In this document: piece after piece, positions 42,001-60,384 of the stretch
How positions within the stretch are numbered: position 1 is the first letter of the stretch
How the letters are laid out: each line of letters opens with the position of its first letter
Virus record (IMG/VR): IMGVR_UViG_3300037843_000618
DNA: 64,000 bases
Direction: 5' to 3' (one strand)
From: an uncultured virus (IMG/VR IMGVR_UViG_3300037843_000618)
Lineage: Duplodnaviria > Heunggongvirae > Uroviricota > Caudoviricetes
Position numbers and translations under genes: made by a program
The notes under the pieces: generated by a model
The model's database searches: none
What the model was told of the DNA's origin: nothing
Seen by the model: the letters and a program-made list of their open reading frames with translations, nothing else

Positions 42001-44310
42001 GAGCCAGTCCACGGCGTCCGAGCTTGTGATCTTACCCGTAATCACTGGGTACTGCTCGTACTCCTCGTCGTCAAACATTTCATGGACAGTCAGATATGCC
42101 GCTCTGCTGTTGAGCGACCAAGAGCCGCCGAGGTTCTTGTAGTCGATCTTTTCACGATCTCTCAGTGCAAAGCAACGGTAGACGGTGAGAGGGAACCTCA
42201 GCTTCGCCAGCTTCGGGGCGACTTCGTCGTAGTACTCCTTCATGTTGCCCAGATCGCGGTCGTTGAATACATCAATGTCGAGCAAGTTAGAGAACTCGTT
42301 GTTCGTATCGGTCTTCTTGTCAATCACCTGCTCGAAGGTTGGGAGCTTAATCACTGCTGATTTAAGCAGCGCAGCGTTTACGCCTTTGCGTGTCTCGCTG
42401 GACGGCGCGAGGTTGTACTTCTTCTCAATCTCCTCGGAGGTGTACTCTGCCTCGTCGTTCTCGGTATGCTTTTTCTCCCACGCCGTGAGCTTGTCCCAGC
42501 GTAGCAGGTCGGACTTCCACGGCACCGTTAGCTTGGAGGATGCGAGCTTGGTGGAAGACACGAGCCGAACTACCTTAGCCTTTGGGGCACGGTACTCCCA
42601 GAGACCGGATTTGCCGCCGAAGGGCTTGCCTGCCCAATAGTTCTTGGCTGCTTGGATCACGTTAGGGTCGTTGGGCTGGTATTCCCCGTAGACGCTGACC
42701 TCGCTGTACCAACTCATGTCGCACTTCTCGACCTTGCCGACAGGCTTAACCTCGTAGATGTAATCCTCGTAGCCGCCCGCATAGTCCACGTCGTCAGGGT
42801 GCGCCACCATGTACACGCTATCCTTGCGCGGCAGAGCGCCCTTGGGACGGTACTTCTCCATTATCTCTTCGTGCTCCGCAACCTTCGTGTCATGTACGTA
42901 TCCCCCCGGCTGCGGCGTGAGGATGTCGCCCGGCTTGAACTTCACGCGGCTTCCGTGGTATAGCTTGGTTGCTGCGACACGGAACTTCCTGAAGCTCGTC
43001 GGCTTCCAGTAGACCTTGTGCCAGTGCTTGTGCTCGCCCTCGCCGTGCCCCGGAGCCTCGATCCTCGCGACCACGGCCTCCGCCACGGGCTTCCCGCCGA
43101 ATGTGAAAATCAGCTTCTCGCTGAGGAAGACTCGCGGACGGTTCTTAAAAGCCCAATATTCGAGCGGTGCCTTCGGGCGGACAAAGAACTTCTGGCGGCG
43201 CTCCTTCGGCACCTCGATCACGAAGCCCGGCGTCTTCACGACATTGACTTTCTCGGCCCCCACCCTCATCGTCTTCTGGTCGTAGGCCCCCAGGGCGTTC
43301 AGGTCGCTGTACGCGGACGGATCGAGGGCGACGTACTCCTGCTCGGTCAAGCCGCCGACCTCGGTGTAGATGATGCCGTCGTGACCCGCCGCCTTCGCGG
43401 CTTCGGCGATGTCCCGGTCTATCGGGAGGTAGTTGACCTCCCCGTCCGCCTGGTCCAGCAGGAATTTCTCGGCACGCTCCGGCGACAGGAGCTTTTCCAG
43501 GGCGTCGTATTGGTCGGTCAGCACCAGGGGATTGTTGAAACGGAGTCTGGCGACCGCGATGTTCTCGCCGTACTCCGGCGCTGGCGTGTCGGAGAAGAAT
43601 GTGCCGCCGACGCCGGATTTCACGTTCCCGGTCCCCGTGGCGTGGTAGGCGTAGAACTCTATTGGCTGGCCGGTCTTCGCGGCGTGCACGGGACCCAGCT
43701 TTCTCAGGTGGCGAATGTCAACGCCCCACTGCGCGGCGGCTTGTTTCTTTGCGATGCCAACGACCTTGATCGGGCCGATGTGCGCCGCCTTGCCTAAGAG
43801 TTCGATGATCGCCTTCGCAAGCTGCGGGTCGTTCTTGACGATGTAGTCCGTCAGGTCTATCATCTCGCCCGAGAGACCGGAAGACCCCTCGAACTCGACT
43901 TCGCCCCACGCTTCCCACGCCGCCTCGAAATCCGGGTAATGCGGAAACTTCTTCTTGTCGTGCCCCTCGGCACGCCACGCGGCGTTCTCCTCGTTCCACT
44001 TCCTGAGCCAAAGCGCCTGTACGCGGTCGGCGAGAGCCTGCCCCTTGGGGTTGAGTTCGCCACGGTCATCCAAGAGGTCGTAGACGTCGTCCTCGTCGGG
44101 GATCAGGTTCTTGGGGTCCGGTTGCGCGATCTCTATCACCACGCCGTTGCGCTCAAGCGCGTACTGGTGGGCGACGTCCCAGTCGGCGATGTACACGGCG
44201 TCAGGGCGGGGAACATCGACGTCATAGACGGTGTCCTCCCCCGGCTTGAGAACACCCTCTTTGAGGATTTTCTCGGCGTTTTGTCGGGATGTACCGTGAT
44301 ACCAGCGCAT
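36061..44310 (-). CDS. Giant polyvalent protein B (2749 aa): several ADP-ribosyltransferase-like, papain-like, ParB-like, Nudix, GNAT, Zn-finger and lysozyme-like modules
   Basis: Start at 44310 overlaps the upstream TGA (TGATG). Motifs: WYHGT, YHAT, LYHGS, VYRCF..SWS..EEE, GCGIWA..H..D, DGNHR, Nudix GG.....NP...A..EM.EETG, QRGKGHG, FQAWF..SKVVD..G.P..VYHGT, DGFHR, NNPGNI, GACKFAS..H..D. Confidence 0.88.
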   Translation of the reverse strand: MRWYHGTSRQNAEKILKEGVLKPGEDTVYDVDVPRPDAVYIADWDVAHQYALERNGVVIEIAQPDPKNLIPDEDDVYDLLDDRGELNPKGQALADRVQALWLRKWNEENAAWRAEGHDKKKFPHYPDFEAAWEAWGEVEFEGSSGLSGEMIDLTDYIVKNDPQLAKAIIELLGKAAHIGPIKVVGIAKKQAAAQWGVDIRHLRKLGPVHAAKTGQPIEFYAYHATGTGNVKSGVGGTFFSDTPAPEYGENIAVARLRFNNPLVLTDQYDALEKLLSPERAEKFLLDQADGEVNYLPIDRDIAEAAKAAGHDGIIYTEVGGLTEQEYVALDPSAYSDLNALGAYDQKTMRVGAEKVNVVKTPGFVIEVPKERRQKFFVRPKAPLEYWAFKNRPRVFLSEKLIFTFGGKPVAEAVVARIEAPGHGEGEHKHWHKVYWKPTSFRKFRVAATKLYHGSRVKFKPGDILTPQPGGYVHDTKVAEHEEIMEKYRPKGALPRKDSVYMVAHPDDVDYAGGYEDYIYEVKPVGKVEKCDMSWYSEVSVYGEYQPNDPNVIQAAKNYWAGKPFGGKSGLWEYRAPKAKVVRLVSSTKLASSKLTVPWKSDLLRWDKLTAWEKKHTENDEAEYTSEEIEKKYNLAPSSETRKGVNAALLKSAVIKLPTFEQVIDKKTDTNNEFSNLLDIDVFNDRDLGNMKEYYDEVAPKLAKLRFPLTVYRCFALRDREKIDYKNLGGSWSLNSRAAYLTVHEMFDDEEYEQYPVITGKITSSDAVDWLNTVRAWMTLPEEEEIRMRPGAKVKVQGRVRTAANLPTISFATFKKWLKKVVKEDIKIETVTGAFQLSYKGKPVAWLEFPAEEWGLMGLLERITRHEQSKSDEATWDALMGPQPESTKTANEMTENPDYYMTEGCGIWAVNFARKNGGEIYILSAKRGEGWSEEIPYEVTHAFVKNEGKTYDIRGERTPDKMAWELSMGEYSVKGPWTPDEFEAKFMGSDDDKPLFGKEGADKAAALGDQHHHKDDIPTPLHAVPKRPAVIDWYSDSPDVAGKEPELVEIDPKTLLTDQDTVSKSHIDKILGHIDKINEPTPSTSEEHSAHPLVLGTSEGDFVFDGNHRCAAALLKGLDIKVLYLDLAPIEDWVPEYYLGEEDEEQGKTGTEKKADKIIDVGEGDEYWAGEGNAASGVLPVCPSTGRVCLAMRSDDVHMGGVWGTIGGAVKDGMNPQRSAKSEMAEETGYHGGISLTPAYVFKDRGFTYHNFLGTVSSEFSFSPGERHEWETDRIVWVPYAEVLADIEKNPGDYHPGLLKLFANSKDAIERALKIEKKTACSKIAWQEIAVEEGENSSIGSLLGGVLENDKDLAAWAEQEIVSPALTEMPKRRKFMKQFKGMKVGVIDDMHIYQRGKGHGSKMLEDFIKRCKAAGCSAVLLQAGVYEPQQAGFSLVEWYERHGFKTMEISGGLPLMVKWLKPQGKKSALLAVSKLDRARVIDMIQKLQAHADSAARIGNEAEAKTFADKIKELRTAYGLDDESAKPWWEQKRTCPFHNCEVPAETQECPSCVKEEEDNEREAAARQYQQEMQRIKDSPYSVPRSWKRRGASAHPQDAEFRAAAEALGIEYLGPIGGLAPGEGVLVFQDPVTQGSLGVPENQWSPERLKERLERMRKKFGAKTGAGVMESRRPCPSGKRKFFDEVSAVGPHKEWDPGTPTLHTYKCPRCGWFHLTRQPQKTTVAGQTHMFPSSQDAKFQAWFDGSKVVDKNGNPMPVYHGTRSSVEFEEFSMTGPEVDDWGESSSSGSGADPTALMGAHFAEEPNVANLFAEGKGWTSTRYEGEAEKPRVIQVFLRITNPKDFGSEHNLREFINQGKVRGDAVDLALAYDLGVEPWEEGNEEAVSQWYEKYENDAAFRAEQNRYLFEQHRNVEGDAELLEEAAYDLASQAKSRLTTAGHDGVRYKNVVEGGHAWIAFAPDQIKSVYSQFNPKDPRFTASKNSSSYPAEMSPEETINYVDFLHEFGHGGGEPFEDPEWIREAEKYVLQTIPLDDPGVKWPKATHLPVAQEYAQRKTPLPPIIIAANGYVIDGFHRVEAARMRGDKTIQAYVGVKDASKDAAHTPKEADWRSKYVLPAALALGLGGAPSAVHPGEATPQQIEQRQEQQTEAKTKAEQERQIDALIEAISRAEGANPLFNNPGNITDFNTGKIRTFDSWDKGRDALEDQLNRIADGDHPSIRPDMTLREAGLIYSNGDPNWAKNVSSIMRVSQSIRMGELIRGRGTQRAQAELSPGRTGTWAKKAAGFAFKTFKKLWHVGSMDVKHKQEGSLEGSGLSVSVNPEEWMQIAEIGGDTWELTKPGNRFLNFHRLSKQQRQQIMAWGVENGYATEVSGAWRLVYYDSETDEERYMEFLSKEEAEAELGNYGDDEKVVPVDGKTVSGTDKLKQRTKNPHADETAVAFDLLVTVYAEDELDCDGVWWQDTLDPASLSAPRGVIFPSKLKSWKAKKIQTAATEWKKLPPTDEWINRAKLFLKEKWEERHRELGREGVPIDLGGACKFASIFAQKLFGGKMVGTAEHQALQLPGNRIIDLTDLYDPNTFRHDKEFWMNPEHAESMKSCEPRAQQWADEFMQKWWTEVFRTRMSSGDYHQNVGWLLPDGSFQPLLKGESHREGAVRAGLSTDPQDMTEAFDKGAVRVSGNQYTNLEFKTPSSSTISLLLEFILQKCQNAKTITFDWLKPRRREQEFFSVDDAVMWLETAGTSVMAAAKKEVL

Positions 44311-47300
44311 CAGTTTACTCCGAACGGTCTGTTCTTCTGCTGCCACAGGGCGCGTCCCGCAGGGGACTGCGTCATATGTGGTTTGATCTGGAAGCCAGTC
44401 AGGCCCTCGGCGTACTGGTACAGCGCCGTGGCTATTCCCTGTCTCCAATAATTCTTGTCCACCTCGGTGTCCGAGGATTCAAGCCGCCCGCCGCGCAGCA
44501 CGAAATCGGCCGAGCCGACCGGCTTGCCCGGTAGTCCTTTCTGTTTCTTCTTCGTGTCGAATGCGTTCACGACCAGCAAGTTCCAGTTCGATTCCCCGAT
44601 CTCCTCGTCCTCATCGGTCGGGTCGCCTGCCTCGTGCCAAGAATACTCGGGAACGAGTTTATAGTTCTCGAACATGTCGTTCTTCCAATCTATGTCCACG
44701 GCCCCGGCAGCCGATTTCGGCTGGCGCACCATGTAGCCCAGCGCGGGGTCGTAGCCCGGCTCGTCCTCGAACCTGTGCTTCCTGTACCATGCCTGCAAGG
44801 CGTCCTTGTCGAGCCTCGTCGCCTCGTTGCCGAATGGGGACGCCGTGAGTTCCACTTCCACGCTGTGCTTGTCAGCGACGCTGAGAATCCTTTTCAGGAC
44901 CAGGGTTCCCATTCCCTGCCCCGGCACGGCGGAGCGGATTCCCTTCAGGCGGAGCCTGCCCCTGAGGTCGCCTTTCGCGATGGAGGCGGGACCCGAGATG
45001 TCAAGCTCGAAATACACCGCTGGCTTGCCCTGCGCCATCATCATACGCTCGTCGGGGTTCCTCGGATTGACCGGGAACTTCTCGTAGATTTCCCTGACAG
45101 CCTGCGCCACGTCGTCGAGGGAAGCCGCCGTGATCGTGCGCTGCCCGCCCCTCGGCACCTTGTAGCCTTCGCCGTCCCGGTCGATGCCGACCAGCTTGAG
45201 CGTTGTCCCCGGCACGAGGGTGATCTCGTTTTCGTCGGGGTTCTGGATGTTGTTGGACAGCGTCTTCTCGAAGTCGATGTCGCTTGGGTTTGAGACCACG
45301 GCTTTCAGGATCACAAGCTCCGGGTTCTTGGGCTTGGGCGTCCGCGCCCACATGGACGAGCCGCCGAAGTAGGCGTCCGCGCTGTTCTCTACCCACGTCC
45401 AGTGGACTCCCGCGCTGCCCAGGTCGATCTCCTGCCCCCTCTCGACTTCCAACGCCCGGTATATCTCAAGCGGGAGATCGAGGGCGGAAAGCCATTGGGT
45501 GTTCTCCCAGTAGCGCTCCTCCAACTCCTCGCGGGTCACGCCATACTTCTTCGTGAGGCTCTCGTCTATCTCGAACTTGGGGTGTAGCTTCATCCACTGC
45601 TCGAACGGCGGGAATTTCTGTCCTGCCTGCTTCTCGACGTAGTCTGGGCCGAACCGCATCTCCTTCGGCACCGCCTCGACCGCCTCCATCGCCGGGGCGC
45701 GGCGGCGCGACTTGGGGACCAGCCCCAGCCCGTGGCAGATCGGGCACCAACGGCTCAGCCCGCCTTGAGACTTCAGCTTGCGTTCGAAGTTCCTGTCCGC
45801 GCCGTCCCATATGCGGGCGACGGTGAAGGTCATGCCCTTCCGCCTCAGGGCTTGCGTTATCTTCGCTCCTGAGCCTTCGTAGTGCTGCTGGATGCGCTTC
45901 TGCGCGTTCAACGCCCATCCGAGGTAGTGGCGTGCGTGGAACGGCTCGCTGGCGTCCTCGCGCTCGGGCTTCACCTTCGTCCCCGGCTTGATGTCGAAGT
46001 GCAAAAGGTAGACCTGACCCATGACCGTGTCGCGAGGGTCGCCCTCGAACTTGGCGGCTTTGCCGGTCACGCTGGCTTTCTCCATCTTGTTCATCTGCAA
46101 CTGGTCTTCGCCCTTCGCCTGTGGCTGACCCTCGATCCTGCTGCCGAAGCCGCTATCGGGGACGGGATTCGGCTCCGGCTCCTCCTCGCCGAGGCTCTCG
46201 TGCAATGTCTTGATCTCCTCGGAGAACGGGTCGGACTTAAGCGTCTTGGTCAGCCCCACGGCTTCGTGGTCGGTGTGCCGCACCTCGTTCTGCGCCTCAG
46301 CGAACACGGCGCTCTTTTGGAGCAAAGCGCTCTTGCGGGCGATCACGCCGCGCTCGACCAGCTTCTCGCGGAACGGGGTGCCCTCGCGGGTGGTGCCGCT
46401 GGTGGTGAACTTCTCGCCGGGGAACTCCTGCTTGATCTTCTCGTACATGCCCGTGGCGATCCCCCTGCGGCGGTACTCCGGGTCAACGAACACGTGTTTG
46501 ACCCAGATTTCCTTTGGGATGTCAGCGATCCGCTCCCATTCTCTTCCGTCGTACTCGTCCTTCTTTTCCTTGTAATAGCGCGTGTCCTCGAAATCGACGT
46601 CCTTCTCGGACTCGTTGAAATCCACGACGCCAATGAGTTCGCCGTCCAGCGTGGCCGTGGCTTGGCAGAAAAGCTCGCCGCCATGGGAGTCCAGCACGCT
46701 GACGCTGTACTCCACGCCCTCGGGCGCGGTGCCCGCATCCTTCTCGAAAAGCTGCGGCGCGAGTTCCTTCAACGGCGGCACGCCGTAGATGCCGCGCACG
46801 CGCTCCGGTATGTCGGCGTAGGCGTTGGTCTCCTCACCGCTCTCCGGGCTGTTGTAGTATGTCTCGTCGAGCGGCGTGACCTTGTGTGAGTCGGCGGTCT
46901 TGTAGAAGGAATGAACGTCGGTCTTCGGATCGTACTTGATCAGCAAGCCCGAGGTCGGATCGAAAATCTCGGTGTCCGACCGCTTCTCGCCGTTCTCGAC
47001 GGCTTGGGCGAGTCTCGTGGCGTCGCCGAAATACTGCGCCACGATCTCGTCCTCGGTGCAGTTGCCGATGTACTCCGGCTCCGATTCCGTTCCGGCTGCG
47101 GTAGCCACTTGCTTACCCACGCTCACGAAGCTGCCGTTGTGCAGGATGTCGTACATGATGCGGCTGCCCTTCGCCTTCTCCTGCTCCCAGCCATCCTGCT
47201 GCTCCTGCTGGTTGTCCCAGAAGGACTTGAAGACGTGGATTTCGCGCCACGGCACCCTGCGCCCGGCGACAACGCCGACGATGACCTTCACCGACTTGAG

Positions 47301-50300
47301 CACCTGACGCCAGCGCATGCCCTGCTCCCAGCGGATCAGGATCGGCATGGGGAAGTCGGGGTCAGTGGTGCCGACAGCCATGCTGGTCACGGCTTCGCTG
47401 CGCTTGCCTGCGGTCTTGGCGCTCGCGGTGCGCACCCAGAAGTTGCCCTTGAGGTCGCCCACGTCAAGCTGCTGCTTCTTAAAGCCGAAGCTCTTGGCAA
47501 GCTGGTCATAGTATATGTTTGATTTTTCTTCAACCAGCGGATCACGTGCTGCTAGATTTTCACCTGTATTGATAGCAACATTTTTGATGCCATGACGACG
47601 GGCGATCTCGATCACGCTGGCAAGAGCGTACTCTGCCCAGTCCTCAAACAGCCCGATAAGTTGTTGTTTGATCTCTTCCAGCTTCTCGATGGTGTAACCC
47701 CGTTGAGTGACTTGCTGTTTGCTCATCTGGAAGCGCTGTTCATTGATGCCGTGATTCTTGAGTTCCTCTTTCGCCCGCTCCTTTAGGGCATCGGGGAAGC
47801 TGTTGATGTAGGACTGAAGGTTCGGCGCTGTAAGCATCTGCTTGGCTTTTGCAACGGCATTCACGAGGTCAGATTGCACCTCGTCTACGAGCAACCAGTT
47901 GTCGTCCACGAAATCTACGCGCAGCCAACCTACAGTATTCTTGGAGACCGGGTGCCTGTAATGCTGAGCGCCCTGTTGCACCATGCCGATGAACTCAGCG
48001 ATGAGTGGGTCTTCACCGATAATCTCGGCAGCGGACGCTGATTGGTTGACGCGCAGCACAAGCTGTTCAACGTCACGGAAAGAGGTCTTAGGGTCACGAT
48101 AGGTACCGTGCTCAAGTTCGTAGTTGGAATATCCTTTCTCAGCCTGTGCATTGTATTCTTCCATCCAGCGGTCCATGTCTTCGAGTGTGATGGCTGGACG
48201 GTTCTGGCGTACCTTAGTGAACAGTGGAGAGTTCCGCTCCCTCGGAAACTTCTTCTGGAAATCTTGCCACGACATAGACTGGATGCCGTTGTCGTAGAAC
48301 TGCTGATAGACCCAGCGCACGCGGTCATAGTCCTTGGTTACGCCATGCGGAAGCTCCTGAATCTGGGGCAGCGCAGTGGAACGGCTGTTGCTGACAGCTT
48401 GCTCTAAGTCCTCAAGCTGCGGCGCTGCTGCTGTTTTATAACGCGACCAAACATCAACCCACCCGGAGAAGTCCTTGTGCTCGGACGGCTTCACCATGAT
48501 TTCCTTGCCCTCTTTTTCGAGGTACTTCGTAAGTATGTCAGCGTTGGGTACGGGACCTTTCTTCGTTTCTTTGACCCAAGGGTTCGGCAATTCAATGGGA
48601 GGTTCTGATCCGGCTTTGTCCCAAAGCTCTTGTAGTCTCTCCTGCATGTCCTTGGCGTCGGCGTTCGGCACTGCCCAGCCATTGCCGATTCCAGCGCCTC
48701 GAACGAAAAGCTGGTCGTCCGTAGTGGTGAACCGCTCCGTCTCGTCGGGGTGACTCCGCTTGTACCACAGGTGCTTTAGAGCCTGAGGTCCGAGGCGAGA
48801 TGCAGAGGCGAAGACAATGCTACCGTCCGTCCTCTTGTGCAGCGCGATGTAATAAGGCTTGACAGGTAGCTTCTCTACCACGAGGCTTTCGTCTGACTTC
48901 TCGTTGACGAAGTCCGCGCCGTACTTGGCGTTGTACTTCAGCGTGAATTCTTTCCAGCCCTTGCCGTGCCCTGTTTGGCGAAGCTCGTTCATCACCATGC
49001 GCCAGCCGCGTTCGCCTGTGCCTTGGTATTTTTCTATCAACTTCTTGCCGTTGACGAGGTTGTCTGCATGGTGGCAAAGCTCATGTGCAATGATGCGGCG
49101 CAGCGTGGTCTCATCCTTCAGGATGCTCCTCTGAAGCTGGATGATTGTGGTTTCATTGCCGTAGAGTGTAGCGTTGGTCACACCGACGCGCCACACGTCT
49201 TGTCCGAGGAAGCCTGACCTTGGAGAGTTGACGATCTTCAATTCCGGCTCTGGCAACTGTACACCCAGCACAGGCATAAGCTCGTGCATAACCCTCTTAG
49301 CCAATCCGAGATCACCCACGCTCTTCTCGCCAACTGCGAGCTTGGCTTCGAGGCTACCAGTCTTCGGTCCTGCCGGGTGCGTCTCCATGTACTCAATCTT
49401 GCTGCCATCTCCCAGCATGATGTCGTCGCCGGGGCGGTAGTTGTCGGGGATGATCCACCCCTCGAAGCCTGCGTTGATCGTGCCTTCGCTGATCGTCTCA
49501 ATGCCGTAGTCTTCGATTCCGTGCATTTCAAAGAATTCCTGCATGTCCGCCTTGCCGTTCAGTTCGACAAGCTGGATTGGGCTTTTCACCCGATACGTAC
49601 GAATTGAGGGCAACCCGGTGTCCAGCGGGTCTTGCGCATCGTAATTGCGGTGCGCGAACCAGTCCGCGACCTTAGGGTTGGTGGAGAACCACGCCGGGAA
49701 CGAAAGCTCGCCGCCCTCTTCCCATTCCGCGCTCGTGCCGTGGTACAGGGTCGTGCCGGGTTGGAGGGTGAGGAACCGATCCCACTGCTGCGGCTCGTCG
49801 TCAAAGTTCTCTTCTTCGTCGTAAGCAGCGGTTTTGGGTATGGGAACTTCGGTCGCCCAGTTAGATTGAGCGCCGCCTAGCACGATTGCTTTCTCCTTGT
49901 CGATCTTCCACGCCTTAGCGGGATGCACAGCCCCTCGATGTGCGGCGTGAGCACCGTTGTCAAGCATGAACTCTGTGACCTCGGGGGTCATGCGCTTCTG
50001 GAGCTTCTTGCCGACTGTGGCGAGGATGCCGATGTCGGGATTGTAGAGCATTGCCCACTTTTGCTTGTCGGTGAGGAAGTAGCTGAACATCCAACGGAAG
50101 TGCGCCCGCGCCTCCTCGGCTTCTGCGCCGGGCTTGTTGATGGCTTGGTCGTGGTAGGGGATGCCTTCCATCCTGTAGCGCAAGGATTGTTCCTTCTCAT
50201 AGTCGTTGAGGGGCTTTCTCGCCTTGTATTGGGCTTCCCAGTCTTTGAACTTCTTTAAGGCGTCCTCGTAGCCCACCATGAACGACATCCATTCGCCGAT

Positions 50301-53144
50301 GCTGTCTTCGTCTGGCACAACGTCGCCCTGCAACGTACTGCCGTCGATCTCAAACACATATCCGAAGGGGTCTTTGCCCTTGAGGAAGTCTAAGTTCTTC
50401 TCACTGAGTAAGCGTGAGCCTGTGCCAAACATGTTGCCGCCCAGCGCGTAGATCGCGGCGTAGCCGAAGCTATCCGTCAGGTACACACGGTCGGGCACCG
50501 GGGCAAGCTGCGCCCGGCTCTTCGCCTTGTCCGGCATCGTGATCTCTCGGGGCTGGATGCCCTCCTGCATGATCTTCAGCGCAAGTTCTTCTCTGTCGGT
50601 GCCGTGGTAGAACTTCCGGCTTTTTGCCGAATCATGGAGCGGCGCTGCGGACTTCGTGGTGGGTATTTTCGCGAACTTCGGGTCTTTCAGGATCACTTTC
50701 ACGAGGCGCTCCACCTCGCCCCGCTTAGGCTTGTCCAGAATCCCGTTGCTGATCAATTGCAACAACTGATCCTCGGAAACTTCCTCGAAGAACGGGTCGT
50801 TGTTGGGAAACTCCTCTTCGATGCGCTCCCGCGTCGTCTGCCCGCTGGCGTCGAGCACTTTGCCGTTCAGGACACCGAACACGTGCGCGACGGCGGCGGG
50901 GCGTCCTTCCCGGCTCTCGTAGGAGACGTCCTCGTCTTCGTCCCAAAACGGGTCTTCGTCCCAGAAAATCTCGATGTCGCAGCCCAAGGCCCTGTGGAGG
51001 GCCAAGGCGAAGATGTGGCAGCGCCCGTGCAGGTGTACCTCGGACAGGGTTATCGCGGCAGTTTTGCCGCTCTCAACCGCCTTAAGCCCCTCGGCTTGGA
51101 TGGAGGCGCGGTTCGTCACGGAACTGACGTGCCACCACGTCTTCACGGCGGCGGTGATGCTCGGGTCCTTCGGGTCGAACTTGCCCACGTTCCCGATGGC
51201 GCTCTTGACCTTGTGCGGGTCCCAGACGATGTAGTGCTTGGTGTCGTAGTCCATCGTCATCGGTCTGCCGAAGCGGGGGGTGCCGAACTCGGAGTAGGCG
51301 TCCTGTATGATGCCGTCGAAGCCCATCTCCTGGTAGACGTCCGCGATAAAGCTGCCCGACGCCATGAAGACGGCGAGGGCAACAATGCCGTTTTCAGTCT
51401 CGCGTACTTCTTTCTCGAAGTCCCAAGCGTTGAACGACTCGCCGGAGTTCCCGATCAGTGTGCTCCACATTTCTTGTACATCGCCGCCGTAGTAGTTTCC
51501 CGCTACGCGCATCATCGCGTTGTACAAGTCCACTCCGCTGCCGGATTCGTTGCCGTCGTCGTCGATTTCAAGCTCAAACCCTGTGCCGCCGTTCTTCTGC
51601 ACCACCACGGGGTTTTGGATGCTGAGGTAGACAGGCATGGTCATGCCCTTGCTCTGCCCGGCGATCTGCTCCCGCGCCATCGCCTTCGCCTTCTCCCTCA
51701 ACTCCTCGTGCTCGTCGGAGCTATACGGCGGGAAGTCCTCGCCGGGGTGCTCGTCGTCCCATTCCTGCTCCATGTCCTGGAAAATGCGGTCGGCGGCGTT
51801 CTCGATGCGAGAGGTGATGTCCGGCCCGACGTCCGTGGCGTAGTTCTCGCCCACGTCGGTCTTGGAGGACGTGAAGTACAGCGCCTTGCCGTAGTAGTTC
51901 TCCACGTTCGTCTTGCTCGGGTCGAAGACCTGGAAGTCGTGCGTCGTGCCGTGGAAGACCACCAGCGGCTTGCCGTCGTCGTCGCGCACCTTGGACTTGC
52001 TGAACCACCTCTTGAAGTTCGTGGTTTGGGTCGGGGGTTTCCTCGGCGTTTCCTTCTTGGGCTGCTTCGGCTGCAACAGCTTGGGCTTTCGCTTCTTCGG
52101 GCGCTTCCCTTTCTCGGGTTGGGTCGCAGGCTCGTCGCGCTGGACTTCCTCTTCTTCCGGCTGCTCCTGCGGGACCTGCGGCGCGACATCGGGGATTTCC
52201 GGCGTCACCTGCGCGGGGGACGCGGCTTGTGCCCGAAATAGCCACGAACCCACTTTGAACTTCAATCTATGACCGATTAACTCAGCGGTTTCATAAAGCG
52301 CTTCATGCAAATACATCAGCGCACTTTCTAGAGAGGATTCAGTCTCGCCGAGCTTCCCTGATTCGTAGAGGATGGTGTCCGCTAGATGGAGGACGTTCAC
52401 GGCTTCTTGGAGCATCTCTTTGGCTCTTCCCCGCAATTTTGGTTTGAAACTGGCAAGACCGTCGCAGATTCGTTGTAATTTTTCACGCTCTTCCTTGAGC
52501 CAGTATTCGAAAGCTCGGGGATTTTCGGGGTTCTTTACGCGTCGCGGATCGAATTTGATTTCATCGTGGATAGCTGCCAATTCGTCTAGTATTTTAGCGG
52601 GTTTCGCCTTTGCGGCCGCCTTCGCCAGCGGGACTTCAACCTGGTTGTCGTCGTCGAACATGGACAAGGTCACGGCGTCGGCGACGAACTCAATACCGAC
52701 GAAGTTGTCCCTCCCGGCGAAGTGTTGCGCTTCCTTCTGCGCGACGTATGCGACGGTGATGTGCGGGGTGTAGGGGAAGTCGTCGGGCAGGGTGCCCATG
52801 GCGGCGGCGACCGCCTTGTGGAGCGCCTCGAACTCGTGCCCATGGACTTCGATCACGACCGGGGTGCCCTCGCCGGACGCCTCGGGGAAGACCGTGGTCT
52901 TGCCCAGCATCACATTGAAGGATTTATACCCGCCCATCACCCGTCGCAGGACGCGTTCGTCCGGCTGCACGCCGTACTTTATCGTGACGTGCAGGACCTC
53001 GACCCTGCCGTCACCCGCAAGAAGCTCGTCTGGTATCAGTTCCTTCCCGATGCGGGTGATCTCGGCGGCGACCTCCGGGGGCACGTTGATCTGTGTGCTG
53101 GCCTCGTCGTATTGCCTGGCTGTCTTTTTGTCCAACAGGCTCAT
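44310..53144 (-). CDS. Giant polyvalent protein A (about 2944 aa): 2H phosphoesterase, ADP-ribosyltransferase-like, papain-like, SprT zincin, GNAT and GIY-YIG-like modules
   Basis: HVT..HIT (2H); FKRWF..SKV.D..G.PLVVFHGT; GRCHIFA..H..D; FYHGT; LYHGT; AHELCH; VDEVQSD; V.PEYRRRGIAT; VYLLHF..HYLGWA..RI..H; PGQGMG; YWRQGIAT. Confidence 0.88.
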   Translation of the reverse strand: MSLLDKKTARQYDEASTQINVPPEVAAEITRIGKELIPDELLAGDGRVEVLHVTIKYGVQPDERVLRRVMGGYKSFNVMLGKTTVFPEASGEGTPVVIEVHGHEFEALHKAVAAAMGTLPDDFPYTPHITVAYVAQKEAQHFAGRDNFVGIEFVADAVTLSMFDDDNQVEVPLAKAAAKAKPAKILDELAAIHDEIKFDPRRVKNPENPRAFEYWLKEEREKLQRICDGLASFKPKLRGRAKEMLQEAVNVLHLADTILYESGKLGETESSLESALMYLHEALYETAELIGHRLKFKVGSWLFRAQAASPAQVTPEIPDVAPQVPQEQPEEEEVQRDEPATQPEKGKRPKKRKPKLLQPKQPKKETPRKPPTQTTNFKRWFSKSKVRDDDGKPLVVFHGTTHDFQVFDPSKTNVENYYGKALYFTSSKTDVGENYATDVGPDITSRIENAADRIFQDMEQEWDDEHPGEDFPPYSSDEHEELREKAKAMAREQIAGQSKGMTMPVYLSIQNPVVVQKNGGTGFELEIDDDGNESGSGVDLYNAMMRVAGNYYGGDVQEMWSTLIGNSGESFNAWDFEKEVRETENGIVALAVFMASGSFIADVYQEMGFDGIIQDAYSEFGTPRFGRPMTMDYDTKHYIVWDPHKVKSAIGNVGKFDPKDPSITAAVKTWWHVSSVTNRASIQAEGLKAVESGKTAAITLSEVHLHGRCHIFALALHRALGCDIEIFWDEDPFWDEDEDVSYESREGRPAAVAHVFGVLNGKVLDASGQTTRERIEEEFPNNDPFFEEVSEDQLLQLISNGILDKPKRGEVERLVKVILKDPKFAKIPTTKSAAPLHDSAKSRKFYHGTDREELALKIMQEGIQPREITMPDKAKSRAQLAPVPDRVYLTDSFGYAAIYALGGNMFGTGSRLLSEKNLDFLKGKDPFGYVFEIDGSTLQGDVVPDEDSIGEWMSFMVGYEDALKKFKDWEAQYKARKPLNDYEKEQSLRYRMEGIPYHDQAINKPGAEAEEARAHFRWMFSYFLTDKQKWAMLYNPDIGILATVGKKLQKRMTPEVTEFMLDNGAHAAHRGAVHPAKAWKIDKEKAIVLGGAQSNWATEVPIPKTAAYDEEENFDDEPQQWDRFLTLQPGTTLYHGTSAEWEEGGELSFPAWFSTNPKVADWFAHRNYDAQDPLDTGLPSIRTYRVKSPIQLVELNGKADMQEFFEMHGIEDYGIETISEGTINAGFEGWIIPDNYRPGDDIMLGDGSKIEYMETHPAGPKTGSLEAKLAVGEKSVGDLGLAKRVMHELMPVLGVQLPEPELKIVNSPRSGFLGQDVWRVGVTNATLYGNETTIIQLQRSILKDETTLRRIIAHELCHHADNLVNGKKLIEKYQGTGERGWRMVMNELRQTGHGKGWKEFTLKYNAKYGADFVNEKSDESLVVEKLPVKPYYIALHKRTDGSIVFASASRLGPQALKHLWYKRSHPDETERFTTTDDQLFVRGAGIGNGWAVPNADAKDMQERLQELWDKAGSEPPIELPNPWVKETKKGPVPNADILTKYLEKEGKEIMVKPSEHKDFSGWVDVWSRYKTAAAPQLEDLEQAVSNSRSTALPQIQELPHGVTKDYDRVRWVYQQFYDNGIQSMSWQDFQKKFPRERNSPLFTKVRQNRPAITLEDMDRWMEEYNAQAEKGYSNYELEHGTYRDPKTSFRDVEQLVLRVNQSASAAEIIGEDPLIAEFIGMVQQGAQHYRHPVSKNTVGWLRVDFVDDNWLLVDEVQSDLVNAVAKAKQMLTAPNLQSYINSFPDALKERAKEELKNHGINEQRFQMSKQQVTQRGYTIEKLEEIKQQLIGLFEDWAEYALASVIEIARRHGIKNVAINTGENLAARDPLVEEKSNIYYDQLAKSFGFKKQQLDVGDLKGNFWVRTASAKTAGKRSEAVTSMAVGTTDPDFPMPILIRWEQGMRWRQVLKSVKVIVGVVAGRRVPWREIHVFKSFWDNQQEQQDGWEQEKAKGSRIMYDILHNGSFVSVGKQVATAAGTESEPEYIGNCTEDEIVAQYFGDATRLAQAVENGEKRSDTEIFDPTSGLLIKYDPKTDVHSFYKTADSHKVTPLDETYYNSPESGEETNAYADIPERVRGIYGVPPLKELAPQLFEKDAGTAPEGVEYSVSVLDSHGGELFCQATATLDGELIGVVDFNESEKDVDFEDTRYYKEKKDEYDGREWERIADIPKEIWVKHVFVDPEYRRRGIATGMYEKIKQEFPGEKFTTSGTTREGTPFREKLVERGVIARKSALLQKSAVFAEAQNEVRHTDHEAVGLTKTLKSDPFSEEIKTLHESLGEEEPEPNPVPDSGFGSRIEGQPQAKGEDQLQMNKMEKASVTGKAAKFEGDPRDTVMGQVYLLHFDIKPGTKVKPEREDASEPFHARHYLGWALNAQKRIQQHYEGSGAKITQALRRKGMTFTVARIWDGADRNFERKLKSQGGLSRWCPICHGLGLVPKSRRRAPAMEAVEAVPKEMRFGPDYVEKQAGQKFPPFEQWMKLHPKFEIDESLTKKYGVTREELEERYWENTQWLSALDLPLEIYRALEVERGQEIDLGSAGVHWTWVENSADAYFGGSSMWARTPKPKNPELVILKAVVSNPSDIDFEKTLSNNIQNPDENEITLVPGTTLKLVGIDRDGEGYKVPRGGQRTITAASLDDVAQAVREIYEKFPVNPRNPDERMMMAQGKPAVYFELDISGPASIAKGDLRGRLRLKGIRSAVPGQGMGTLVLKRILSVADKHSVEVELTASPFGNEATRLDKDALQAWYRKHRFEDEPGYDPALGYMVRQPKSAAGAVDIDWKNDMFENYKLVPEYSWHEAGDPTDEDEEIGESNWNLLVVNAFDTKKKQKGLPGKPVGSADFVLRGGRLESSDTEVDKNYWRQGIATALYQYAEGLTGFQIKPHMTQSPAGRALWQQKNRPFGVN

Positions 53145-53213
53145 CAATCCCCTTTTTTGCTTAGGGAATTCGTCTCTGCTACTGTCTAGGGATTTTGTAG
53201 ACGTTTTTAAGGG

Positions 53214-53580: not shown

Positions 53581-54213
53581 TTACGCCTCTGTGGCGAAGC
53601 ATAATGAACATCCAGGCTTGACAATGCCTCGATTTACATGCCAGCGAACATGGGCTACTTGTCTCATATAATTGGGTTTTTGCGCATTGATGTGCCCCTG
53701 CTTAGTCCCGTTTGCTCTGTTGGCGGCAATTCCCTGCGGCAAATTATGCATCTTTTTCGCCCACCCATTTTCAACGGCAAGACGCCCATTTGCGCGACCA
53801 CCTGCTGGGGAGGTTATGGTTTTTATTTTGAGACGATGCTCTGGTGATTTTGGTTTGTTCTTCAGAGCCGCGCTGATTTTTCTTTTTGTTTCTGGTGAAT
53901 GGGTGTAAATCTGTTTTGCTTTGCTTATTTTCATCTTTTCTAGAGCCGCGCCGGTCAATGCCCCGCCAACTCCCCCATTACTCATGTTTCTGAGGCATCC
54001 TGTGCCCAAGTCTTTGCGCCCATATTTAGCAATTAGCCTGATTTCTTCGGCAAAAGCCGCTTCTTCGGACGGCTGGTATTGCACGACGATTCTTTCCTTT
54101 GCAGGCGGGCGGTGCCTTTTCTTGGAGACAAAAGCACGGTCACCTGTGCCTTTTCCGACATAGTATGGAGAGCCATCGGCGCGGAGCCAAAGATAGGTGT
54201 AAAACCGCATCAT
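53581..54213 (-). CDS. Free-standing GIY-YIG homing endonuclease with NUMOD3-like motif
   Basis: FYTYLW...PYYVGKG...R...E; HSPETKRKIS; visibly lower GC than its neighbours. Confidence 0.82.
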   Translation of the reverse strand: MMRFYTYLWLRADGSPYYVGKGTGDRAFVSKKRHRPPAKERIVVQYQPSEEAAFAEEIRLIAKYGRKDLGTGCLRNMSNGGVGGALTGAALEKMKISKAKQIYTHSPETKRKISAALKNKPKSPEHRLKIKTITSPAGGRANGRLAVENGWAKKMHNLPQGIAANRANGTKQGHINAQKPNYMRQVAHVRWHVNRGIVKPGCSLCFATEA

Positions 54214-55790
54214 TCTGTAATACCCGATTTCCTATAGGCCTTCCACAACGTGAGCTTGGCTTTCAGGTAGCTCACGTGTGGCGGCATGGGTGGCTGATTT
54301 GGGAGCTTATGCGGGTGTTTGGCGTCGTCCAAGGCGTGTTTACCGAGATACGCCTGAAGCTCTGGTAGGGTATTACCACTCCCCTTGATCTTGTCCCAAG
54401 CATGATGCAACCAGCCGTCGTGTAATACTTGGATTTGTTCCTGCGGTTTGACTGGGTCAGACCAGTTGTCATGCTCTGCGTAATTCCACCCAAGGTCTTT
54501 CATGTATTGATTTAATCCTGCTTGGATGTCCCCCGCCGCCTGTTTGGCGACAGCCTTTACGTCGCTGGCGGTTATACGGCGAGTGGCAAGTCCATTAGAC
54601 TGGAGACCCAGCCGCTTCGCCAGTTTCGTCAAGGCGGCGGCAAGTTCAAAGCGCAGGTCTTCATGGCGACGGTTTTCAACTGACTGTTGAAGCTTTTCTA
54701 AAATCGCCTCGCCTTCTTGCACAACCCGGTTCAGGTCGTTGGTCATCACTATTTCTTCGGGGGTGAGGGGTCCTTTTTCCGGTTTGTAGGTGAGATCGTG
54801 GCAGATTTCGGACCACGCGTGCATGAGCACGGACGCGACCTGAATCTCGACGTTTGTGTCCGCATACTGGTATTCGTCCTTGTGAAGAGATTGGGGTTTC
54901 AGTCTGACAAGGTAGTGCGTGGCGACGTAGCCGATGCCGTCCCTCGGCCCCCTGTCCTCGGGAAAGTTCTTGGGCTTCCGCATCAAGGTGAACCGCTGTT
55001 CGATAAGCTGACCCACGGCGGTGCGGTCGTTGGGCAGGTACAGCGCCACGCGGACCCCGGCAAGGTCCACGATGTCGTCGTAGATGTCCTGGAAGGACTG
55101 GTAATTCTTTGTTTTGTTGCGCTCAAGGAGCTTTCCCTTGAGCTTGCGGGGCTTCTTGGCACGGTAGGTCACGATGGCGCGGATTCCGGCTTCTTGGAGG
55201 GCGTCCGCAAGGTGCTCGTGGACTTTCTCGGCGACCTTATCGAAGTACTCGAACTCGTGCTTGTACAGCTTGACGAAGGCGTCGATCAGGGAGAGCTTCT
55301 CCTCCTCGGCGACGTGGCGCTTGTCTTCGTGCTTCTCGGCACGCTCCTCGTGTATCTCCCCCTCGTGCTCCTCGGCTTCTGGCAGTTCCCTCATGGCAGC
55401 GTCGAGGAACTCGTCGAATGGGACTTCCGTGATCTCGCCCAGCGCCTCCTCCGGCATGTGCTCCAGGTACAGCTTTTCGGCCTCTTCGAGGGAGTCGAAC
55501 CCGAGCATGACCTTGTACTCGTCGAATTTTCCGTCCTTCATCTGCTCCAGCACGTAGACGTACTCGGAATCCTCGTTGGGGCCGATGTACACGTCCACGT
55601 GGTCGTCGTCGTCTGCGTCCACCGTGCTCGGGATGTAGCCGTAGTCGCACTTCATGTCCATCTTCCAGCTTTCCCCGTTGTCATGCTTGCCAACGCGGAC
55701 GCTTCCCTTAGGCCACTCGATGATGATGGGGATACCGTGGAACTCGGTGCTGTGCATGTTCGGCAACTTGTCTGCGGTCACGGATTTCAT
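54210..55790 (-). CDS. Inorganic pyrophosphatase-like domain fused to a RelA/SpoT (small alarmone synthetase-like) domain
   Basis: IEWPKGS.R..DYGYI..T...D.D.VDVYIG..DEYK.MLGF; then RAK....L..K, DIVDLAGVRV, GYVATHY, EIQV.SVLMHAWSEI.HDL.YK. Confidence 0.85.
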   Translation of the reverse strand: MKSVTADKLPNMHSTEFHGIPIIIEWPKGSVRVGKHDNGESWKMDMKCDYGYIPSTVDADDDDHVDVYIGPNEDSEYVYVLEQMKDGKFDEYKVMLGFDSLEEAEKLYLEHMPEEALGEITEVPFDEFLDAAMRELPEAEEHEGEIHEERAEKHEDKRHVAEEEKLSLIDAFVKLYKHEFEYFDKVAEKVHEHLADALQEAGIRAIVTYRAKKPRKLKGKLLERNKTKNYQSFQDIYDDIVDLAGVRVALYLPNDRTAVGQLIEQRFTLMRKPKNFPEDRGPRDGIGYVATHYLVRLKPQSLHKDEYQYADTNVEIQVASVLMHAWSEICHDLTYKPEKGPLTPEEIVMTNDLNRVVQEGEAILEKLQQSVENRRHEDLRFELAAALTKLAKRLGLQSNGLATRRITASDVKAVAKQAAGDIQAGLNQYMKDLGWNYAEHDNWSDPVKPQEQIQVLHDGWLHHAWDKIKGSGNTLPELQAYLGKHALDDAKHPHKLPNQPPMPPHVSYLKAKLTLWKAYRKSGITE

Positions 55791-58010: not shown

Positions 58011-58040
58011 TTGCCAAAAATCCCGCCGATATGGTATCCT
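58011..58040 (+). promoter_or_regulatory. Sigma70-type promoter for the ncRNA
   Basis: TTGCCA-18 nt-TATCCT with TG extension; predicted +1 about 58047 coincides with the first base of the terminal helix. Confidence 0.6.
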
Positions 58041-58046
58041 ATGTAT

Positions 58047-58350
58047 GTGGACGGCTTGACCGAACCAATTCCCTGCCGGGGAATAAGGTGTGTCCCGCGT
58101 GAAGAACGCTGGGATGGCGGTACAGGCGTTTGCGCGATAAGGCTGAAATAGCCGGGGTCGTACAACCCCGAGCGACGTAAGAACCCGTCAAACCGTAACC
58201 ATACACTGACGGCTGTATCGGGTTGCAGGCAACCAGTCCTGCCCAGTGCCGCAAGGCAACGCTTAGGCAGATCACCAAAGCGGCTGGTGGCTGAAACAAT
58301 CGTGCGATGTCCAAGGCTTATCCGTAATCAGTAATCGGATAGCCGTCCAC
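58047..58350 (+). ncRNA. Unidentified structured non-coding RNA (about 304 nt)
   Basis: Perfect 10-bp closing helix GTGGACGGCT/AGCCGTCCAC; many internal hairpins; no credible ORF; flanked by a promoter and a terminator. Confidence 0.72.
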
Positions 58351-58369
58351 GCTTATCTTATAATACTTT

Positions 58370-58411
58370 GCCCACCCGACTGCTTTTGGCGCTCGGGTGG
58401 GCTGTTTTTTT
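58370..58411 (+). terminator. Rho-independent terminator
   Basis: GCCCACCCGA-N13-TCGGGTGGGC followed by TGTTTTTTT. Confidence 0.85.
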
Positions 58412-58439: not shown

Positions 58440-58664
58440 ATGTTGGCCGAGATCGTCTACACGGCGGTGATCTGGGAAAGCGAGCGCGGCTGGGGCAAGC
58501 GCCTCGACGAGACCAAGGAGTTCGAGACCGAGAAGGCCCGGGACAAGTTCATCGCGAAATTCAACTCAAAGAACAATGAGCCTGTCACGCCCGACTGGTA
58601 CATGTACGCGGAAAGTGGTGCGGACATCGTCCGGCCCCGCTCAAAGCGCAAGAAGCGCAAGTGA
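58440..58664 (+). CDS. Hypothetical phage protein (74 aa)
   Basis: TGGTATAAT extended -10 and GAGGTG RBS; ESERGWG..D....F......FI..FN..N.....PDWY motif. Confidence 0.75.
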   Translation: MLAEIVYTAVIWESERGWGKRLDETKEFETEKARDKFIAKFNSKNNEPVTPDWYMYAESGADIVRPRSKRKKRK

Positions 58665-59095
58665 CACTCTCCGAGTTCATCCTCGCCTGGCGTTCGCTCG
58701 CGCCGACTGTAAGGGGGAAGTGCTTCTACTGCGGCAGGCAGACCAGCAAGGACGGCAAGCCGAAGCACGCCCATTTCCAAACGAAAGACCACGTGGTCCC
58801 GAAGAGCGCGATGAGCCATGCCCTACGAAACGCGGGGATACCGCACGGTAACTGTGTGATTTGCTGCCGGAAGTGCAACAGCGCGAAGGAGGACCTCACG
58901 ATGCAGGAGTTCAAGCTCCGCAGCGGGATCGGGACCTTCTACGCGGAGGAGGTCCTCGGGACGCGGATCGACGACCTCAGCGACATCGCCGAGGTCACCC
59001 TCCACATCGTGAATACCCGCAGGGTCGATGGGCGCAGTATCAAGTTCCATGGGAAACCCGAACCTCGCGTCCGACCTGCTAGTCAGCAAGCCTGA
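58661..59095 (+). CDS. HNH endonuclease
   Basis: CFYCG...TKDHVVPKS...N.VICCRKCNSAK. Confidence 0.85.
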   Translation: MTLSEFILAWRSLAPTVRGKCFYCGRQTSKDGKPKHAHFQTKDHVVPKSAMSHALRNAGIPHGNCVICCRKCNSAKEDLTMQEFKLRSGIGTFYAEEVLGTRIDDLSDIAEVTLHIVNTRRVDGRSIKFHGKPEPRVRPASQQA

Positions 59096-59178: not shown

Positions 59179-60384
59179 GTGGGCGGTAACGCCGCAGCGA
59201 AGCCAGCACCCACAAAGACAGGAGTCTCTGTGAAAAGTGCAGCAAAGACCGCCGCTTCCAACTTGCTCGACCCCCGCCGACGCAGCGCCCAGGCGAAGGA
59301 GTTCCAGGACGCCCTGCGCCAGCGCGTTGTGGGCCAAGACCCCGCGCTCGAAAAGGTCGCGGAAATCTACCAGATGTTCCTTGCCGGGCTGAATCCCCCC
59401 GGCCGCCCCGTAGGCAATCTCCTGTTTCTCGGTCCGACTGGATCGGGAAAGACCCGTGTGGTCGAGGCGACGGCGGAAGCGCTGTTCGGCGACTCACGTG
59501 CCTGCATCAAAGTGGACTGCGCCGAGTTCCAGCACTCGCACGAAATCGCCAAGCTGATCGGCTCCCCTCCGGGCTACCTTGGCCATCGGGAGACGCACCC
59601 GCTGATCACGCAGGAAGCGTTGGCGCAATACTACACCGAGAACCTCAAGCTGTCGATCCTTCTGTTCGACGAGATCGAGAAGGCGTCCGACTCGCTGTGG
59701 CAGCTTTTGCTAGGCATGCTCGACAAGGCGACGTTGACGCTGGGCGACAACCGCCGCGTGGACCTGTCGGCGACGATAATCTTCCTGACTTCCAACCTCG
59801 GGACCGGGGAGATGCGAAACCTCCAAGAGGGCGGGGGCATGGGCTTCGGCAGAGGCGACGTCGTGATGGACGAGGGATTTGACCAGAAAATCCAGCGTAC
59901 AGCCACGGAGGCGGCGCGGCGCAAGTTCACGCCTGAGTTCATGAACCGCATCGACAAGACCGTGGTCTTCGGCATGCTTCGAGATGAGCACCTTCGCGAG
60001 ATACTCGACATCGAACTGGGCCTCGTGCAGGGGCGCATCCTGTGCGCCACCAAGGGATTTGTGATCTATGCCGACCAGCAGGCCAAGGAAGCCCTGCTGC
60101 TGGAGGGCACCGACTTAAAGTACGGCGCTCGCCACCTCAAGCGTGCGATAGAGCGCAACGTCGTCCACCCGCTGGCCAACCTGGTCGCGACGGACCAGGT
60201 GGCGCTCGGCGACGTCATCCAGATCGGGTACGATGGCGACCTCCCGGTTCGCGGCGAGACCCCGGTGACTGGGGAGTACACATTCACGAGACGCCAAGAG
60301 GGCGTCATAATCCCCAGGGAAGCCGGGGCAATCGGGTCGGCCGCGCCCTCGGGCGTGAGGATCACAATCCCGAAGAAAGACTAA
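59179..60384 (+). CDS. Stand-alone ClpA/ClpB-type AAA+ ATPase (D2 module only)
   Basis: VVGQD.A, FLGPTGSGKT, KLIGSPPGYLG, LFDEIEKA, TSNLG, PEFMNRID, YGARHLKR; no D1 or N-domain. Confidence 0.9.
   Translation: MGGNAAAKPAPTKTGVSVKSAAKTAASNLLDPRRRSAQAKEFQDALRQRVVGQDPALEKVAEIYQMFLAGLNPPGRPVGNLLFLGPTGSGKTRVVEATAEALFGDSRACIKVDCAEFQHSHEIAKLIGSPPGYLGHRETHPLITQEALAQYYTENLKLSILLFDEIEKASDSLWQLLLGMLDKATLTLGDNRRVDLSATIIFLTSNLGTGEMRNLQEGGGMGFGRGDVVMDEGFDQKIQRTATEAARRKFTPEFMNRIDKTVVFGMLRDEHLREILDIELGLVQGRILCATKGFVIYADQQAKEALLLEGTDLKYGARHLKRAIERNVVHPLANLVATDQVALGDVIQIGYDGDLPVRGETPVTGEYTFTRRQEGVIIPREAGAIGSAAPSGVRITIPKKD

Follow-up and report, generated by a model that had tools for sequence, protein, structure and literature searches.

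The manA RNA (Rfam RF01745) was first described as common in potential 5' untranslated regions and as a riboswitch candidate (PMC2864571, available passages). Once filed as a marine cis-regulatory candidate, it has lately been reported to build RNA-only cages: According to the accessible part of a preprint (10.64898/2026.07.01.735769), manA forms cages of 8, 10 and 60 chains in vitro via the interchain contacts L5-L7', L8-L9' and L3-L8'; as stated in the same portion of the text, OLE and ARRPOF do not go beyond dimers, and both contacts and stoichiometry vary among manA variants. In OLE and GOLLD (RF02032), switching among palindromes marks symmetric interchain pairing (Kretsch et al., 10.1101/2024.12.08.627333, in the sections accessible).

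The RNA gene described here (304 nt, non-coding; positions 58047-58350, plus strand) resides in a peat-bog phage; the analyzed stretch of 64,000 nucleotides from an uncultured member of the Caudoviricetes (IMG/VR record IMGVR_UViG_3300037843_000618) is referred to as the window. As the alignments indicate, the RNA is an expanded relative of manA built of two manA cores: It is not a member of Rfam manA, because it scores below the cut-off and is without the three-hairpin domain, and it is not the new class considered in a first-pass annotation of the window, since its two ends as well as an internal copy correspond to manA cores. Its family shows the manA core as a modular unit that has been doubled and rewired by phages of peat, freshwater and gut, whereas the carriers of manA are marine cyanophages; both RNAs are phage-borne and often adjoin tRNAs. 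Unlike manA, the family RNA comprises approximately 300 (versus 190) nt, two cores, loop contacts between these cores and two extra palindromic loops.

The RNA gene and its surroundings

The 304-nt body is predicted to fold tightly (z-score −2.93; none of 100 shuffled sequences was equally stable) and is flanked by a sigma-70-like promoter and an intrinsic terminator (Table 1). Promoter-like sites are weak evidence alone (five in 7 kb versus 1.9 expected); a TAnnnT box located 9-11 nt 5' of the closing helix is conserved in six of the seven closest relatives. The terminator hairpin escaped a simple scan and was found by folding, and in all seven closest relatives a GC-rich hairpin followed by a T-run stands 3' of the RNA. 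The intergenic gap that holds the RNA sits between divergent open reading frames, the next of which begins approximately 20 nt 3' of the terminator. The window is phage DNA, with a terminase large subunit and a virion protein encoded; its sequence is present in peat and wetland DNA runs (20 rows from 19 studies, two possibly being the source), and identical pieces of the RNA sequence occur in four other peat DNA runs.

No match was obtained for the whole window against Rfam at gathering score, and ARAGORN revealed the window RNA to be neither tRNA nor tmRNA; the Rfam models of RNase P, introns and ribozymes did not match it. These ARAGORN and Rfam results agree with the initially stated lack of tmRNA, RNase P and SRP signatures. 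Among 49 aligned members, 12 have at least one frame that stays free of stops for 90 codons, and the RNA lengths are evenly spread modulo three (15/18/16). Judged by sequence criteria, the locus is a real, well-conserved and tightly folded non-coding RNA gene; its first-pass description as a stand-alone structured phage RNA with promoter and terminator is borne out by covariation and context, the transcription side being predicted.

Other contents of the window include a gene for a 526-aa phage protein with an inorganic pyrophosphatase domain fused to a RelA/SpoT domain (54210-55790, minus strand), two giant multi-domain proteins of 2795 and 2945 aa with NUDIX, ParB-like and RNA-ligase-like matches that have a phrog_21376 segment in common (36061-53147, minus strand), and a stand-alone AAA+ ATPase gene of the ClpB second-domain type (59179-60384, plus strand).

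Table 1. Features of the RNA locus (window positions; covarying pairs are given as position:position).
Feature	Position	Strand	Basis or remark
Sigma-70-like promoter: TTGCCA, 18 nt, extended -10 TATCCT with TG	58011..58040	+	-10-like box in 6/7 closest relatives
Structured RNA body, two manA-type cores	58047..58350	+	Fold, covariation, descriptor, model R2
Outer closing helix, 5' strand; partner 58341-58350	58047..58056	+	Exact 10 bp; 82% of cells paired over 4 pairs
Outer manA module UG-NNN-GAAYAA-stem-loop-UAA-NNN	58057..58089	+	58059:58089, 58069:58083 covary; loop 58075-78 in pseudoknot 1
Side arm with presumed T-loop-like loop (family CTGAAAAG)	58090..58118	+	58091:58116 covaries; loop in 32/49
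Connector helix 5' strand and inner module 3' strand UAA-GGC; partner 58290-58302	58135..58143	+	58137:58300, 58143:58290 covary
Hairpin A; palindromic loop GTAC at 58160-63	58153..58170	+	Alignment, palindrome counts
Invariant GACGTAAG strand	58174..58181	+	Alignment; invariance partly forced, the strand being a search anchor
manA P8-like arm: CTGA 58206-09 (pseudoknot 2), CGGC 58210-13 (pseudoknot 1)	58182..58224	+	Covariation
Inner manA terminal hairpin copy	58225..58242	+	Covariation, descriptor
Inner closing helix capped by arm: optional GCAA hairpin, hairpin B with palindromic loop GATC 58270-73	58243..58287	+	Covariation
Inner manA module 5' strand UG-GCT-GAAACAA	58288..58299	+	Covariation, descriptor
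Outer manA terminal hairpin; loop TCAG 58328-31 in pseudoknot 2	58320..58340	+	Rfam alignment, covariation
Intrinsic terminator: hairpin 58370-58402, T-run to 58411	58370..58411	+	z −6.28; similar hairpins in 7/7 closest relatives
144-aa stand-alone HNH gene, neighbor outside the RNA system	58661..59095	+	Homologue in 7/51 loci, one clade

Family size and distribution

By blastn, the window RNA matched two 735-kb phage records at 77%; motifs common to both RNAs led to 12 loci, 11 of them true, and then to 15 Lak megaphage records. An exact 20-nt pattern from the RNA had no match in viral contigs, and looser patterns yielded mostly chance loci among the matches listed. The final three-motif pattern retrieved 35 viral, 76 metagenome and 5 genome loci, of which 35, 67 and 5, respectively, were true members; gathering by these motifs biases the family toward members that retain them. 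A profile accepted 115 of the 124 sources, all nine misses being metagenome loci. The collection comprised 71 distinct cores (66 full-length), 52 of them below 95% identity (mean 57%); 49 of these 52 were aligned, with the window in place of its identical copy L348 and with L001, L273 and L321 left out for their long inserts. The family model R2 assigns 225.6 bits to the window RNA, which was part of the training set.

The carriers are large phages from peat, from freshwater and from the gut of animals, including Lak megaphages and the 735-kb phage. Since only five loci were present among 185,579 species genomes, the family is regarded as essentially viral; among 151 genomes of the seed genome's phylum, the family model matched the seed genome only. 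Of 24 carrier records or genomes, the model matched 21 strongly or weakly (18 at E<1e-60), with one full copy in each. In one locus, two copies stand in tandem, the first cut off and a tRNA-like segment between them (L298:1-101 and 210-513). Of the members from genome bins, one belongs to a Bryobacterales bin (L357, contig CAVOJX010000029.1), three to Bacteroidales bins and one to a further bacterium; these are weak host hints, perhaps misbinned phage contigs.

No description of the family was found in the openly accessible literature searched, including the available passages of PMC2864571, PMC9964418, PMC7657543, 10.64898/2026.10.21.760802 and PMC10690425; a motif search of the supplements of PMC8040213 and PMC10690425 (all but two and three files, respectively) gave no match. 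The IMG/VR RNA candidates of PMC10690425 measure at most 151 nt in the portion of that paper accessible.

Secondary structure and covariation

Covariation was assessed by a G-test on the 49 sequences with a tree-based null (neighbor-joining tree) instead of R-scape: At E<0.05, 24 pairs were significant, 23 of them canonical, and the covariation check proposed with the first-pass annotation thus came out positive. For the 67 named pairs, 95.0% of the cells are canonical versus 68.1% in shuffled alignments and 33-46% in slid registers, and 57 pairs exhibit compensatory change; these counts are biased toward the structure, both having come from one alignment. In the terminal helix, pairing amounts to 78-92% in the family, no individual pair being significant.

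All stems that had been listed from the sequence, including the exact 10-bp terminal helix (58047-58056/58341-58350), are present in the window, and the family upholds ATTCCC/GGGAAT, GGGGT/ACCCC, TATCCG/CGGATA and the long-range GCGA/TCGT helix. Others had to be redrawn: The supposed hairpin GGCT-GAAAT-AGCC gives way to a pairing of GGC 58141-43 with 58290-92, and the hairpin CCGTCA/TGACGG to one of CCCG 58184-87 with 58219-22, both according to family covariation. Because of the latter pairing, 58206-13 (CTGA-CGGC) is free for two pseudoknots. Of the 58090-58118 arm only the base is retained, and the GCAA hairpin is an optional insert, seen in the peat clade. Likewise, the three loops that had been likened to T-loops are of different nature: TGAAGAA is the family hairpin loop CTGAAAAG, TGAAACA belongs to the GAAYAA module of manA, and TGAAATA is a conserved junction strand.

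Two manA cores, the inner one permuted

The best sub-threshold Rfam match of the window RNA is manA (23.8 bits versus a cut-off of 55.2; E 4.8e-4), in which both ends are aligned; the Rfam check called for by the first-pass annotation therefore ended without a gathering-score match. Relatives score similarly low (L004 23.5, L002 19.9 bits), and a manA model of our own gave weak, often double matches of at most 24.3 bits on the family loci searched. In the reciprocal direction, the family model matches five of six true manA loci (E 8e-9 to 7e-5).

For a comparison independent of the family, a descriptor was built from 31 distinct manA-type sequences among the matches listed, without family members (Rfam check for S-CREM1 only, 96.6 bits); it consists of the closing helix, UG-NNN-GAAYAA, UAA-NNN and the terminal hairpin. 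With this descriptor, every one of the 49 members shows two cores, the outer arranged in normal order (median 43.8) and the inner in permuted order (median 48.2), and in all of them the scores exceed the top of 588 inner-region shuffles (29.4), the null for the outer core being the shorter inner region. As controls, manA reached at most 21 in permuted order and the inner region a median of 26 in normal order. The window's own cores score 33.5 and 34.7, low within the family range, with the inner elements at 58138, 58223-42 and 58288. The closing helix, the UG-NNN-GAAYAA/UAA-NNN module and the terminal hairpin, whose pairs covary, accordingly occur twice per RNA in 49/49 members; the terminal hairpin shows the GUA..CA..UC loop of manA. 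The family alignment lacks the GGUGGU/ACCA three-hairpin domain of manA, which the Rfam alignment skips as well, and the L5-L7 contact is missing with it; the 5' GACG-loop hairpin of manA is not in the window and stands upstream in 2/50 relatives.

Comparison shows that, at the level of aligned sequence, the inner core, a circularly permuted one, sits within the outer manA core at the tip of the latter's last arm. The parts follow one another as core A to the P8 tip, core B from module tip round to module tip, and the remainder of core A; the helix that in manA ends in loop L8 continues unbroken into the inner module helix, which in manA ends in L3 (loop numbers were mapped from the Rfam order). 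A simple tandem duplication was rejected, as it fails to explain why the 3' strand of the inner module lies upstream of its 5' strand. Rather, core B may have been cut open at its loop L3 and then placed into loop L8 of core A; one loop-loop contact of manA would thereby have become a covalent link, because of which each chain would represent a fused pair of subunits.

It is highly unlikely that the resemblance to manA reflects convergence on a small module by an unrelated class, possibly a ribozyme or an aid in tRNA processing. The low manA scores, the invariant GACGTAAG and CAAAYCG strands without manA counterpart and the frequent position next to tRNAs would fit such an origin; this invariance is, however, partly made by the search, four elements agree with manA in order and pairing register together with both loop contacts, the manA 5' GACG hairpin is kept in the two relatives mentioned, the reciprocal model matches manA, and the RNase P, intron and ribozyme models remained without match.

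Loop contacts between the cores and probably between chains

In the first of the two pseudoknots, CGGC 58210-13 pairs with the outer module loop GCCG 58075-78 (11 state pairs; 58076:58212, E 0.017); the second joins CTGA 58206-09 to TCAG 58328-31 of the terminal loop (10 state pairs, 82% canonical at one position; 58206:58331 and 58207:58330, E<=0.017). The P8-like arm of the inner core thus contacts the module loop and the terminal loop of the outer core. The module and terminal loops of manA show covariation with its P8 arm as well, in an identical register; here, the contacts run across the two cores. A partner for the inner terminal-type loop was sought in the family and none was found.

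Two further loops are self-complementary. Loop A is an exact palindrome in 42/49 members with four types (GGCC 25, GTAC 14, GATC 2, GCGC 1), and self-pairs through G-U in the remaining seven; loop B is palindromic in 49/49 with nine types, compared with 29% of other 11-nt windows. Neighboring bases in the palindromic loops covary (G 38.8, 42.7 and 34.9 versus a null maximum of 30.6), and the palindromes changed 15 (loop A) and 16 times (loop B) on the tree. A pairing of loop A with loop B was discarded, being possible in 2/49 members only. L321, which is outside the alignment, has no palindrome in loop A. Two loops that switch among palindromes give sequence evidence for selection on interchain pairing, and it is very probable from this pattern that each pairs with its counterpart on another chain about a two-fold axis.

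Alternatively, the two cores might clamp together within one chain and yield a compact monomer, a dimer or an open chain (a protein sponge or decoy) in place of a closed cage. Covariation is blind to whether a pseudoknot forms within or between chains, so that both could be intramolecular, and OLE, ARRPOF and the manA variants mentioned above provide precedents for dimers and for varying contacts and stoichiometry. We consider this arrangement unlikely: Two independent self-complementary loops per chain imply more than one partner, and the equivalent manA contacts are interchain in the accessible part of the preprint cited above.

In its phage origin, its position near tRNA clusters and its two self-pairing kissing loops per chain (in GOLLD one with covarying palindromes, according to the available sections of the source), the family RNA is comparable to GOLLD, and L9.3 of OLE shows the same palindrome switching (same sections). 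ROOL and OLE, large bacterial or phage RNAs as well, form RNA-only multimers, as is proposed for the present RNA. It is much shorter than GOLLD and about half as long as ROOL (approximately 600 nt) and OLE. The kinship with GOLLD or ROOL that had initially been considered is without sequence support: The GOLLD model gave no match at E<=1 at the family RNA in 19 records (15 of which carry the RNA), a search without an over-cut-off GOLLD control, and matched 0/5 and 0/151 genomes, where no control matched either. Lak phages contain a separate GOLLD-like RNA (L479:1501-1863 in G010 and L478, MK250023.1 487145-487583; 67.8 and 62.8 bits versus 150), which lies far from the family RNA, was missed by cmscan and is not matched by the family profile. 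An identity with GOLLD was rejected, with no model match at the RNA and nothing in common with the GOLLD-like RNA of Lak phages. ROOL and OLE gave no Rfam match at E<=10, under the same cmscan filters that missed this GOLLD-like RNA.

Genomic context

In 28/51 loci (21/40 with full flanks), the RNA has a tRNA or tmRNA gene no more than 500 nt away, in some only 2-25 nt off and on either side. Upstream of the RNA, a motif that we take to be boxA-like stands in 17/49 loci versus 13/2456 background windows. The peat clade, with a tRNA-free neighborhood, has its own -10 box (6/7) and terminator (7/7). In one locus the RNA precedes a phage tmRNA gene by 27 nt (L294). A canonical manA is located between two tRNAs in S-CREM1 (L120:1716-1930), and tRNA-like sequence was recognized by eye 3' of manA in several other loci (L360, L365, L394, L397, L419 and L467); manA beside tRNAs counts against a purely cis-regulatory role for manA.

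For the family RNA, a function as cis-acting leader or riboswitch of downstream genes, as first proposed for manA from its occurrence in potential 5' UTRs (PMC2864571, passages available), would find some basis in the open reading frame just past the terminator. It is nonetheless very improbable, given that the terminator, not conserved in sequence, is located entirely downstream of the closing helix, that the near neighbors are so often tRNA or tmRNA genes, and that the S-CREM1 manA likewise sits between tRNAs.

Guide RNAs of the HEARO/omega type would be expected to show constant linkage to an IscB-type nuclease gene. The HNH gene downstream of the window RNA, for which a co-occurrence check had been suggested, has homologues 300-1000 nt downstream in 7/51 loci, all of the peat clade and one identical to the window; in the other 44 no homologue was found within the flanks examined, some of them short. 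Its proximity in these seven loci is the one feature in favor of a guide or scaffold RNA for this nuclease, an explanation that is extremely improbable: The linkage amounts to local synteny of one clade, the HNH protein is a lone 144-aa one, both the terminator (as had been pointed out in the first-pass annotation) and another open reading frame intervene, and no HEARO-type Rfam match was obtained at E<=10. The tRNA neighbors, the boxA-like motif, the own promoter and terminator and the clade-restricted HNH gene fit a stable RNA made in large amounts rather than a leader or guide.

Within the 735-kb phage clade, further conserved and apparently structured non-coding segments occur on both flanks of the RNA (L001:3250-3510, L005, L009, L011), each following a boxA-like motif and without an Rfam family at cut-off. 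YrlA (Y RNA-like) sub-threshold matches of 35-39 bits versus 69 were observed in the same tRNA arrays (L003:2516-2630, L006:2581-2693, L007, L010).

A candidate self-assembling phage RNA

Taken together, a free-standing phage RNA with two manA-type cores that self-assembles with its copies appears on balance the likely reading of the alignments; by analogy, it probably works by self-assembly in the manner of manA and GOLLD/ROOL. The palindromic loops and the two pseudoknot contacts, interchain in manA, would close a ring or cage free of protein, for which the predicted contacts offer slightly better than even prospects. Such an RNA would be made in bulk like tRNA, from its own promoter in the window and, at other loci, as part of tRNA arrays or of units headed by boxA. 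The complete picture is more tentative and falls somewhat short of an even chance: a cage subunit in which an inserted permuted copy turns one interchain manA contact into a covalent helix, with two new two-fold palindromic contacts in addition, forming a protein-free shell of a geometry unseen in manA, GOLLD and ROOL and produced in bulk by many large phages, including the Lak megaphages of the gut. As its most likely use, though this is still rather doubtful, the assembly might protect phage RNAs, tRNAs for example, as a scaffold or container resistant to nucleases, or act as a sponge for host defenses that attack RNA during infection.

Palindrome switching bears on whether RNA cages exist in cells, and an RNA of 304 nt with named contacts is a convenient test object; its presence in Lak phages opens gut metatranscriptomes to the question of the role of phage cage RNAs.

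Single-core relatives

Other manA-like RNAs with a single core and different inserts were observed at L473:295-452, L439:295-480, L454:186-342, L383:495-638, L415:388-540 and L447:295-375; these six score 17-57 bits with our manA model, and tRNAs directly follow the one at L415. Single-core RNAs with such varied inserts point to a wider manA superfamily. A 163-nt match to the family model (G018:C1:36348-36510; E 1.3e-10) is probably another single-core relative.
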